Source: an uncultured Thermodesulfobacteriota bacterium (GTDB taxonomy: Bacteria > Desulfobacterota > Thermodesulfobacteria > Thermodesulfobacteriales > Thermodesulfatatoraceae). Taken from it: a DNA stretch of 64,000 nucleotides. The notes below the pieces were generated by a model. It did not search any database, was not told the origin of the DNA, and saw only the letters and a list, made by a program, of their open reading frames with translations. Both the position numbers and the translations under genes were made by a program. Where the stretch lies: assembly GCA_964630855.1 (NCBI GenBank), contig CAZVXP010000021.1:29038-93037 (forward strand), given 5' to 3'. This document shows, piece after piece, positions 49,333 through 51,982 of this stretch; the first letter of the stretch is position 1; each line of letters opens with the position of its first letter.

Positions 49333-49426
49333 CTAACGCCAAGGCTGGGAAAGCCAAAATTTGGTTGCAAATGAAGGGGCTTATTCGTATAAAGATCTAA
49401 GCATATTACTTCCGAGGAGGGAAACT

Positions 49427-49768
49427 ATGAAGAGGGTCAAAAAGTGGATTGGGGCTATAGGTTTGGCTTCTCTGCTCATCGTACCTATCGGTTGTTCGGG
49501 ACTTTCTAAAGAAGATCGGGCCCTAATGGAAGAGGCCATCAAGGCTTCTCAAGAAGCAAAGGCGGCAGCGGCTCAGTGTCAAGCGTTGCAGCAATCCATT
49601 GCGCGGGTAGAAGCTGCGGCGCAGCGGGCAGAAGCTGCTTCTCAGGCCGCAGCAATGGCTGCAGAAAGGGCGGACGCTGCGGCTAACCGGGCGGCCCAGG
49701 CTGCCGCCAAAGCCGAAGCAGCGGCCACCAAAATCGAACGCGTCTTTGAAAAGAGCCTGCGAAAATAA
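49427..49768 (+). CDS. alanine-rich coiled-coil lipoprotein, Braun lipoprotein (Lpp)-like, ending in Arg-Lys
   Basis: GAGGAGG lies upstream of ATG 49427. The signal peptide has a lipobox-like IVPIGC. The mature part is an Ala/Gln/Glu heptad coil, and the C-terminus is ...EKSLRK. Confidence 0.6.
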   Translation: MKRVKKWIGAIGLASLLIVPIGCSGLSKEDRALMEEAIKASQEAKAAAAQCQALQQSIARVEAAAQRAEAASQAAAMAAERADAAANRAAQAAAKAEAAATKIERVFEKSLRK

Positions 49769-49781
49769 GAGAATAGAAAGA

Positions 49782-50684
49782 CTAACGGCGTCTCCGCTTG
49801 GCTTTCCCCACCACGGCGGGGACGCCATTTGTCTCTTCAAGGACTTTTTGCACCTGATCAAAATAAAGGATTATTTTCTGCCCTAATTCTCTTTCGAGAC
49901 GGTTGGCCAACCTTAAAATCTCAAATCGTGCGTTGGGAATTCGTCTTTCGAAGTCTGGAAAAGCTTGCAAATAGACCTTGCCTTCCTTTACACCCAATTT
50001 GAAGGGCTGATACACGATGAAAACAGGGGTTCCTATCGCGACCAGGGGAAAGAGGGCTTCTATGTCTTCGGGATAGAGTCGGATGCAGCCGTGACTCACG
50101 CGTCGTCCAATGCCCCAGGGTCGGTTGGTGCCATGGATGGCGTAAGCCCCACGTGAAAGATAAAGCGCATAAGCTCCTAAAGGGTTGTCCGGCCCCGGAG
50201 GGACCACTTCTGGCAAAGTGGGATCTTCTTCGCGAATGGACTTGGGTACGTGCCAGGCAGGGTTTTTCTTTTTCCGAATAACGGTATAGACTCCCAGCTC
50301 TGTGAGCTTTCCCTCTACTCCCACTCCGATTGGAGCGGTATAGACCACCTTCTGCCCCAGTTCTTGACGGAAGAAATAAAGTCTCATCTCAGCCAAGTTG
50401 ACCACCAGTCCGCTCTTTTTCTCTGGCAAGACGTAACAAGAAGGAATGAGGATCTCCGTGCCCTCAGGGGGGATCCAGGGGTCTATTTCGGGGTTAGCCA
50501 GGACTATTTGATTGTAGCCCAAGTTATACCAGCGGGCGATATCGAGCAGGGTCTCTCCCTCAGACACCACGTGGGTGATGAGTTTGCCTATCACTGAGTG
50601 CTCTGGAGTCCAGATGAAGCGCTCCAGACCCCAGCCCGGAGTCGCAACAAGCAACCATAAGAATAAGAAACCAAAAATCTTCAT
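49782..50684 (-). CDS. LysM-domain L,D-transpeptidase (YkuD family)
   Basis: Signal peptide MKIFGFLFLWLLVATPGWG, LysM HVVSEGETLLDIARWYNLGYNQIVLANP and the YkuD active site IHGTNRPWGIGRRVSHGCIRL. The ATG overlaps the upstream stop (ATGA). Confidence 0.88.
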   Translation of the reverse strand: MKIFGFLFLWLLVATPGWGLERFIWTPEHSVIGKLITHVVSEGETLLDIARWYNLGYNQIVLANPEIDPWIPPEGTEILIPSCYVLPEKKSGLVVNLAEMRLYFFRQELGQKVVYTAPIGVGVEGKLTELGVYTVIRKKKNPAWHVPKSIREEDPTLPEVVPPGPDNPLGAYALYLSRGAYAIHGTNRPWGIGRRVSHGCIRLYPEDIEALFPLVAIGTPVFIVYQPFKLGVKEGKVYLQAFPDFERRIPNARFEILRLANRLERELGQKIILYFDQVQKVLEETNGVPAVVGKAKRRRR

Positions 50685-51982
50685 CGCAAAGGTGGATTGA
50701 AATATCCAAACCTCAATCGGGGAAACTCCCGGGCCAGAGCCCTTACCAGACCCTTTATTCCCAAGGTCTCCCCCTGTGGTTTGAAACGAATCTTTTTGAG
50801 CAACCACATCGGATCCACCGCCATATTTCGTAATTGAACATAATCCACGCCCAATCTCAAAAGATCGCATAGGGCTTCGAATTCTTCGCGTTCGTCGGTG
50901 AATCCCGGAAATACGAAGAGATTGAGGGAAATAAACCCTCCCTTTTCCTTCATCTGTCGAATACTTTCCTTGACCTCCGAAAGCCCAAAGCCTCTCGGGC
51001 GGAAATAGGCTTGATAGTACCTTTTGCGAGCGCTAAAGAGACTGACCCGCATGGAATCGAGACCGGCTCGTCTGAGACGCGCTACCGCTTCAGGCCGACT
51101 GGCGTTGGTATTGAGGTTGATGGTTCCCCGAGGAGTACTTTGTCGCATAAGGAAAATTGCTCTCTCAAGGACCTTTTCCTGTAAAAGGGGTTCCCCTTCA
51201 CAGCCCTGGCCAAAGGAGACCATGGCCCTGGGAGCTTCTTTCAGGTGAGGAACCATGGCTTCTGCGATTTCCTCTGGCGAGGGGACGAAAGAGAGTCGTT
51301 CTTGAGCCAGGTGGGGTCCGTCTTCTTCTTGAAGAGAAAGACAACCCAAACACCGGGCGTTGCAGACTGGAGAAGTGGGAATCGGGGCTTCCCAGCGTTT
51401 TAGGACGAAATTCCTGGCAGCTGGACAACGATAGCGTGTCACACAATTTTCTATCAGGTGTCTTACCAGACGGTTTCGAGGGAACCGGGAAAGCAGACTT
51501 TTGCCCCCTTTTTGGAGACGCTCTTCATCGAAGAAGCGCACTTCCTGGCGGTGATCAAAATCCGAACGAAAAGCTGTGACGTAAAAGCGGCCGTTCCACC
51601 AGCCTACACAGGCGTAGGAGAACAACGGCAAGGGGGAAAGATTTTTTTCTGCTTCAAGATAGGGGCAGAGGTAGAGTTGAGTATGAGCGGGCGCCAGATA
51701 GGCTGCCACGGCCCAGGCCGGTTCTCCAGCTGAAAAGGGGTTTTCGCGCAGAATGATCGGGGTCTCGGTTTGAGGATCGAGTCCCACAGGATGTCGGTGA
51801 GGCAGCACGTAAAGCGCGCTTCCTACCGGCAAGGGGATGAAGTCTTCAGGAGCAGGGAGGATGACATCCAGACCCGAGAGCCCTAAGGCCAGGAGTGAAG
51901 GATGATCATAAAGACGACCTCTTGAATCTGCAAAAAGGAGTCGGGGAGAAGAGGAGGGATGGGAGCTGAGTTTGGGCCACAT
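50681..51982 (-). CDS. radical SAM protein with a roughly 190-aa N-terminal domain of unknown function
   Basis: CNARCLGCLS (CxxxCxxC) followed by a typical radical SAM half-barrel (GQGCEGEPLL, NLNTNAS). I did not recognise the N-terminal domain. Confidence 0.75.
   Translation of the reverse strand: MWPKLSSHPSSSPRLLFADSRGRLYDHPSLLALGLSGLDVILPAPEDFIPLPVGSALYVLPHRHPVGLDPQTETPIILRENPFSAGEPAWAVAAYLAPAHTQLYLCPYLEAEKNLSPLPLFSYACVGWWNGRFYVTAFRSDFDHRQEVRFFDEERLQKGGKSLLSRFPRNRLVRHLIENCVTRYRCPAARNFVLKRWEAPIPTSPVCNARCLGCLSLQEEDGPHLAQERLSFVPSPEEIAEAMVPHLKEAPRAMVSFGQGCEGEPLLQEKVLERAIFLMRQSTPRGTINLNTNASRPEAVARLRRAGLDSMRVSLFSARKRYYQAYFRPRGFGLSEVKESIRQMKEKGGFISLNLFVFPGFTDEREEFEALCDLLRLGVDYVQLRNMAVDPMWLLKKIRFKPQGETLGIKGLVRALAREFPRLRFGYFNPPLR

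Follow-up and report, generated by a model that had tools for sequence, protein, structure and literature searches.

A probable OprI/Lpp-type outer membrane tether paired with an L,D-transpeptidase in Thermodesulfobacteriales

The stretch of DNA analyzed here (the window; 64,000 nucleotides of contig CAZVXP010000021.1, from an uncultured Thermodesulfobacteriota bacterium) carries a gene for a small coiled-coil lipoprotein that converges on a gene for an L,D-transpeptidase (Ldt) with a LysM-like and a YkuD domain. Comparison of genomes across the phylum provides strong evidence that the two products form a functional pair, and the lipoprotein is probably a covalent tether linking the outer membrane to peptidoglycan, like that formed by OprI with LdtPae2 and LdtPae3. 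The host belongs to the order Thermodesulfobacteriales, close to Thermodesulfatator, and its genome measures 2.06 Mb and is 99.9% complete. The lipoprotein precursor gene (113 amino acids) lies at 49427-49768 (+) with its stop included, the coding part running from an ATG at 49427 to 49765 and the TAA stop occupying 49766-49768. The ldt gene (300 amino acids) lies at 49782-50684 (-), with its start at 50684 and a TAG stop at 49782-49784. An earlier reading of the letters alone (the sequence-only reading) had described a 113-residue frame ending in SLRK with a convergent neighbor 13 nt away, and the open reading frame coordinates agree exactly. A chance open reading frame is excluded for the lipoprotein, as orthologs with 32-82% identity are present in 39 of 41 related genomes.

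Conservation and linkage of the two genes

These 41 genomes represent the order; the two that lack the lipoprotein gene are 76% and 91% complete, and each of the 41 encodes exactly one ortholog of the window Ldt. Every one of the 29 lipoprotein orthologs that were extracted has a signal peptide, a cysteine at the same place, a coil and the C-terminal wording ER[IV]FE[KR][GS]L-x-K. Within the order, the Thermodesulfatator-like family and three other genera retain the convergent pair. In species-representative genomes, ldt lies directly downstream of the lipoprotein gene at 40 of 53 loci, the groups among these loci being Thermodesulfobacteriales, Desulfobacterales, Desulfobulbales (Desulfocapsaceae/Desulfobulbaceae), Dissulfuribacterales and SEEP-SRB2. 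A phylum-wide sample added 16 further loci, 15 of them with an adjoining ldt (39-52% identical). Where ldt adjoins, the layout varies between convergent genes and an operon-like arrangement with ldt upstream on the same strand, and every readable lipoprotein encoded at the 16 loci ends in lysine, as in ...FQKSMKK, ...FELQQRK and ...IFMKKMKK.

The phylum sample was evenly drawn and comprised 301 genomes, of which 95 had a match to the lipoprotein and 106 a close Ldt. Both were present in 86 genomes, the lipoprotein alone in 9 and the Ldt alone in 20, giving a co-occurrence odds ratio of 89 (Fisher p-value 1e-44) by a statistic that ignores shared ancestry. Among the discordant genomes, 8 of the 9 lipoprotein-only matches probably are false, representing Ala-rich coils of other proteins, because they fall inside open reading frames of 410-750 amino acids, and 15 of the 20 Ldt-only genomes have weak matches alone (E-values weaker than 1e-60). 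The two genes lie no more than 1.5 kb apart in 60 of the 86 genomes having both. The sequence-only reading had proposed a search for homologs ending in lysine beside ldt genes, and by the three counts obtained (40/53, 15/16 and 60/86) the neighbor is conserved far beyond chance. If the two products had no functional tie, it would be difficult to see why linkage has outlasted changes of orientation.

Three further observations were made on these loci. Genomes of one genus in the sample, g40 (for example G262, G233, G290 and G317), each encode two to three close Ldts together with three to four small alanine-zipper lipoproteins that are paralogs, which suggests a lineage-specific expansion of the module. 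A bacterial lipoprotein/ldt pair is also carried by a record labeled 'archaeon isolate JL_RS_05_5' (JAIWFS010000009.1, our locus L052); this contig is probably mis-binned, because its pair hardly differs from the pairs in records labeled Deltaproteobacteria or SEEP-SRB2. Several Ldt matches in the phylum sample (G308, G053, G199, G163, G286 and others) contain a single stop in frame (TAA, TAG or TGA), which may mark pseudogenes, errors of assembly or matches that run on into sequence ahead of the true start.

The lipoprotein and the YkuD enzymes

The precursor, as translated from the open reading frame, reads MKRVKKWIGAIGLASLLIVPIGC followed by SGLS and ends in ERVFEKSLRK. Its last codon (49763-49765, +) specifies Lys113, the predicted attachment residue. 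Of 68 distinct homologs, a set composed of the extracted orthologs of the order and of loci from one genome per species, 67 end in lysine; in the species-representative subset, freedom from bias is limited to the last two residues, because the motif with which that scan was baited (KxER[IV]FEK[GS]L) precedes them. The terminal lysine is likewise invariant in our alignments A1 and A2, the latter of 41 sequences, and the penultimate residue may be R, K, L, T or Q. Near-invariance of the lysine, next to a residue that drifts, is difficult to account for if the lysine has no role, and it removes an objection foreseen in the sequence-only reading, namely that homologs might lack it.

Profile matches assign the window lipoprotein to the OprI/Lpp alanine-zipper family. 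It scores 27.2 bits on PF11839 (Alanine_zipper, the OprI family) against a Pfam gathering threshold of 23.1, and the alignment pairs residues 55-113 with model positions 11-69 of 69, thus reaching the end of the model. Relatives bear precomputed PF11839 annotations, and those from Thermodesulfobacterium and Caldimicrobium are named 'alanine-zipper protein' in public databases. Alignment with E. coli Lpp by hhalign gave a probability of 93%, confined to the signal peptide and the N-terminal coil. A search of the PDB with the lipoprotein profile yielded weak coiled-coil matches only, among which Lpp itself (1eq7, E 0.024) was no better than unrelated coils.

The body of the mature protein is predicted to be an unbroken alpha-helix forming a 12-heptad alanine zipper (residues 28-112; 49508-49762, +). 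AlphaFold2, run on the 41-sequence alignment, returned one helix across these 85 residues with a predicted local distance difference test score above 90, and a single unbroken heptad register with a period of 3.5 residues extends from about residue 30 to 110, with 87.5% of the a and d positions occupied by A, L, I, V, C or F. The continuous heptad coil noted earlier from the letters is borne out by both analyses. At 0.15 nm per residue, by our own arithmetic, the predicted rod would be about 12-13 nm long, compared with about 8 nm for the 56-residue helix of E. coli Lpp, or roughly 1.5 times its length.

Cysteines occur in the coils and linkers of several of these lipoproteins. The window protein has a single coil cysteine, C50, at a heptad 'a' position, and it is conserved as AAAQCQ within its family. 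The orthologs of Thermodesulfobacterium and Caldimicrobium (our loci L018-L032 and L049-L085) continue from the lipobox into a linker rich in Cys and Pro (GC-xC-P...E-CPEC or CC-K), and in the same proteins a cysteine often stands directly before ERIFEK (..KCERIFEKGLKK). Such residues may form disulfides between or within trimers; for comparison, Salmonella LppB is reportedly redox-active.

The signal peptide (residues 1-22) and the lipobox V-P-I-G-C, with the predicted acylated Cys23, are encoded at 49427-49495 (+). This cysteine is invariant in alignment A2, and the proline at lipobox position -3 (LLIVPIG-C23), to which attention had been drawn as atypical, is present as described; orthologs from sister lineages have more canonical lipoboxes such as LGGC, LSGC and AFGC. 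The host genome encodes Lgt, LspA and LolA, so that the means of lipoprotein maturation and outer-membrane delivery are available. To our knowledge, all characterized members of PF11839 and PF04728 (Braun Lpp) are outer-membrane lipoproteins. The residue at +2 is Ser in the window protein and Ser, Gly, Ala or Thr, never Asp, among its homologs, and the gene for LolA is close to the window, all of which make it very improbable that the protein remains in the inner membrane and tethers that membrane to peptidoglycan in the manner of Dickeya OutB, a reading that could draw on the atypical lipobox, on Lol sorting rules that are not established for this phylum and on the attachment of inner-membrane OutB by Lpp-anchoring Ldts as described in PMC12274547.

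The neighboring Ldt has a signal peptide, a LysM-like peptidoglycan-binding domain (residues 38-81; 50442-50573, -) and a YkuD catalytic domain (residues 93-223; 50016-50408, -). The YkuD match is firm (94.4 bits against a Pfam cut-off of 23.4), the LysM score of 18.2 bits falls below its cut-off of 20.9 with the same residues aligning to the LysM of E. coli LdtE, and no Pfam Ldt_C domain was detected in the protein. The sequence contains RRVSHGCIRLYPED, in which the active-site motif SHGCIRL (50076-50096, -) holds the catalytic cysteine at residue 200 (codon 50085-50087); an L,D-transpeptidase with this active site is also what the sequence-only reading had described. Arginine at Cys+2 is characteristic of amide-forming YkuD enzymes, and alanine at that place marks the DpaA/YafK hydrolase (PMC8263019, PMC10434034). 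The window motif also fits the pattern (S/T)xGCh(R/N) of the ErfK/YbiS/YcfS/YnhG lineage, and identity to E. coli LdtA, LdtB, LdtC and LdtE is 36-40% at about 145 bits each (for LdtE, 40% over 245 residues). The NCBIfam LdtE model aligns with residues 26-294 at a score far under its equivalog cut-off. The best relative in the PDB is 9tyw (9tyw_A; E 3e-66 over the full length), a LysM-type L,D-transpeptidase. This entry is a recent deposit of a 322-residue 'L,D-TPase catalytic domain-containing protein', and our literature search found no paper mentioning it. In a maximum-likelihood tree the Desulfobacterota Ldts group together as a single clade (support 100/99), and its sister group consists of the four E. 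coli paralogs and 9tyw, which places the window enzyme as co-orthologous to the anchoring enzymes LdtA-C and to the cross-linking LdtE alike.

The host genome encodes only two YkuD proteins, and the window Ldt is the sole one of transpeptidase type. The second, YkuD2, is a candidate amidase of DpaA/YafK/LdtPae3 type encoded outside the window (contig C23, 29448-30489, -; YkuD 75.7 bits), with the motif THGCIAL, hence alanine at Cys+2, and a C-terminal extension of about 110 residues without an assigned domain. It is present in 40 of the 41 genomes of the order, and all nine orthologs read across the order contain WTxGC[IVL]A[LM]. Its gene is contiguous with ldt and the lipoprotein gene in one genome of the order (G013), and in eight Thermodesulfobacterium-type genomes some 6 kb separate it from the lipoprotein gene. 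Because YkuD2 resembles E. coli DpaA only weakly (24% identical in an alignment of 167 residues, E 7e-5), it is the motif and the genomic context that point to an amidase role, and YkuD2 is a probable release enzyme for bound lipoprotein.

Proposed covalent attachment and its alternatives

In the mechanism that we propose, the precursor would be exported and diacylglyceryl-modified at Cys23 by Lgt, and the helix predicted by the model and the heptads would assemble, probably as a trimer, into the 12-13 nm rod. The neighboring Ldt would then use Cys200 to join the epsilon-amino group of Lys113 to the L-centre of the stem-peptide diamino acid, and YkuD2 would probably hydrolyze the bond between lysine and peptidoglycan, tuning the fraction of lipoprotein that is bound. 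The combined result would be an outer membrane fastened to the sacculus by covalent bonds, in the manner of OprI, LdtPae2 and LdtPae3 in P. aeruginosa. The genome also encodes three OmpA-domain proteins, so non-covalent tethers probably coexist with the proposed covalent one.

Several observations weigh against this mechanism, or against the assignments on which it builds. The lipobox proline is atypical, the residue before the terminal lysine is not always arginine, and the co-occurrence statistic takes no account of common descent. The lipoprotein misses the cut-off of 43 for NCBIfam NF040598 (Lpp/OprI family alanine-zipper lipoprotein) with 23.5 bits, in an alignment that is full length (residues 12-113 to model positions 7-90 of 90), and a Pfam search gave no match to PF04728 at E <= 1, a model on which E. 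coli Lpp itself scores 89.5 bits. YkuD2 reaches 18.1 bits on the DpaA equivalog NF040599, for which the cut-off is 365. Adjacency alone is no proof of anchoring, because LdtE, the neighbor of lpp in E. coli, makes 3-3 cross-links and does not anchor Lpp (PMC10434034), and in Thermodesulfobacterium- and Caldimicrobium-type genera the lipoprotein gene and ldt lie apart. The Ldt tree was uninformative for separating anchoring from 3-3 cross-linking, as the clade is sister to all four E. coli paralogs; that function cannot be read from lineage was also concluded for LdtPae2 (PMC10434034).

The last three of these points, the LdtE precedent, the unlinked genera and the tree, would equally suit a coiled-coil lipoprotein that is free in the periplasm and not covalently bound, perhaps acting as a spacer or associating with other envelope proteins, beside an Ldt that makes only 3-3 cross-links. 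The pair would then be an inherited arrangement in which the enzyme does not act directly on its neighbor, as with lpp-ldtE in E. coli. The same can be said of the composition of the genome, in which the window Ldt, as the sole transpeptidase-type YkuD enzyme, would have to supply any 3-3 cross-links and may therefore form them in addition to anchoring. We nevertheless consider a free lipoprotein unlikely, since it leaves unexplained why the terminal lysine is near-invariant next to a drifting residue, why members of the close Ldt clade occur almost exclusively in lipoprotein-bearing genomes (86/106, with most of the remainder being weak matches), why adjacency survived repeated changes of orientation and why a YkuD protein with the DpaA motif co-occurs, and sometimes clusters, with the lipoprotein gene. 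Covalent attachment to peptidoglycan is the reading that we prefer.

The remaining features of the locus concern expression and neighboring genes. A strong Shine-Dalgarno sequence, GAGGAGGG (49414-49421, +), precedes the lipoprotein gene, with 5 nt (49422-49426) separating its end from the ATG; its GGAGG core, at 49416-49420, is 6 nt from the ATG. Upstream of it, TTGCAA and TATAAA separated by 17 nt (49365-49393, +) were recognized by eye as a possible promoter of the lipoprotein gene's own, which a consensus scan missed because the -10 hexamer ends in A, not T. The spacer between the convergent stop codons is 13 nt long (49769-49781), and a terminator scan found no hairpin within it. On the other side of ldt, a radical SAM gene (433 amino acids; 50681-51982, -; Pfam Radical_SAM) ends in a stop codon that overlaps the ldt start (ATGA). 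This gene was considered as a further part of the module and rejected, as the ATGA coupling to ldt occurs only at eight loci of the Thermodesulfatator-like family; RadA, upstream, is not conserved either.

Origin of the pair and comparison with known systems

The sequence-only reading had proposed an independent or ancient Lpp-like tether outside the Gammaproteobacteria. A candidate tether outside that group is indeed what we find, and the part of the proposal that did not hold is independence. Convergent origin is rejected, since the PF11839 cut-off is passed, the C-terminal wording is shared and the layout is that of lpp and ldtE; by its PF11839 match, the family-wide ER-x-F-E-K-x-L-x-K and this layout, the window lipoprotein is a homolog, anciently inherited or transferred. 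Tentatively, and with less assurance than we attach to the tether itself, the lipoprotein/Ldt pair, often accompanied by a DpaA-type YkuD protein, may belong to the core envelope of the Desulfobacterota/Thermodesulfobacteriota as a module passed on by vertical descent, with common ancestry with the lpp-ldtE and oprI-ldt pairs of Gammaproteobacteria.

Two widely cited surveys confine Lpp-type tethering to a subclade of the Gammaproteobacteria, and both searched PF04728 only (bioRxiv 10.1101/2021.05.31.446380, since published; PMC8263019). Proteins of the sister family, PF11839, with a conserved terminal lysine and a tightly linked Ldt are found here in about 30% of the sampled genomes of the phylum and are near-universal in Thermodesulfobacteriales. 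If the pair is such a core module, covalent lipoprotein tethering would be much older and wider than the 'recent gammaproteobacterial invention' of the surveys, and the 12-heptad tether would set an unusually wide distance between outer membrane and peptidoglycan in these thermophiles. Should attachment be true, accounts of how outer-membrane tethering evolved would have to be revised, and a substrate would be at hand for the DpaA-like proteins reported from bacteria 'lacking Lpp'. The rods, which form a natural series of lengths, could then be used to test whether tether length sets the width of the periplasm. The system is not entirely new, as Geobacter Lpp is already in the literature and the window protein is a somewhat long thermophile member of the OprI/Lpp family. 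Our search of the literature on PF11839 or on Lpp-like proteins in Desulfo- groups found nothing relevant. It had also been stated that Lpp tethering is documented mainly in Gammaproteobacteria, and this is so for the biochemistry; as a statement on distribution it needs qualifying, as long Geobacter Lpp proteins have already been noted (PMC8824477, PMC13442872) and relatives are named in databases.

With respect to Geobacter, Lpp proteins of 99 or more residues were noted by Mandela et al. (PMC8824477), and in a paper of 2026 the Lpp of G. sulfurreducens is assumed to be covalently attached as a tether (PMC13442872). These proteins belong to the same phylum as the window host under the taxonomy used here and are likewise longer than enterobacterial Lpp. 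PF11839 members of about 99-107 amino acids in the phylum sample, possibly from Geobacter, end in ...FQKSM[KR]K and have ldt directly upstream. They differ from the window lipoprotein in belonging to another subfamily, with a weak match to the Thermodesulfobacteriales profile (E ~1e-4 to 1e-7), and in being co-directional (ldt then lpp) instead of convergent.

Among other outer-membrane tethers, Ldts are said to attach beta-barrel proteins in Alphaproteobacteria and Coxiella (Godessart et al. and Sandoz et al., both 2021). The likeness lies in a YkuD enzyme that links an outer-membrane protein covalently to meso-diaminopimelate outside Enterobacterales; the residues joined there, in contrast, are N-terminal or internal ones of beta-barrels, and the substrates are not homologous to the window lipoprotein.

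E. coli Lpp shares with the window protein the form of a small heptad-coil lipoprotein, a terminal Arg-Lys and a convergent ldt neighbor. In E. coli K-12 (NC_000913.3, 1757421-1758725), lpp (+) and ldtE (-) converge 63 bp apart, and this shared layout points to an early origin of the lipoprotein/Ldt pair as a unit. The two differ in that the window protein has an alanine zipper instead of a Leu/Ile one and an 85- instead of a 56-residue helix, with one Ldt in place of four paralogs.

In P. aeruginosa, OprI, which ends in Arg-Lys, is anchored to diaminopimelate by LdtPae2, a member of the ErfK/YbiS/YcfS/YnhG lineage, and is probably released by LdtPae3, which has the motif SXGChA (PMC10434034). 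The window host differs in being from a thermophilic lineage of Thermodesulfobacteriota and not one of the Gammaproteobacteria, and its genome has no separate cross-linking enzyme of LdtPae1 type. The two systems share a PF11839 lipoprotein with a continuous Ala-rich helix, a C-terminal R-K with similar preceding wording, an Ldt of the anchoring lineage with (S/T)xGChR and a second YkuD protein with (S/T)xGChA. The window rod is predicted to be longer than that of OprI, because its mature protein has 91 residues compared with 64 in mature OprI.

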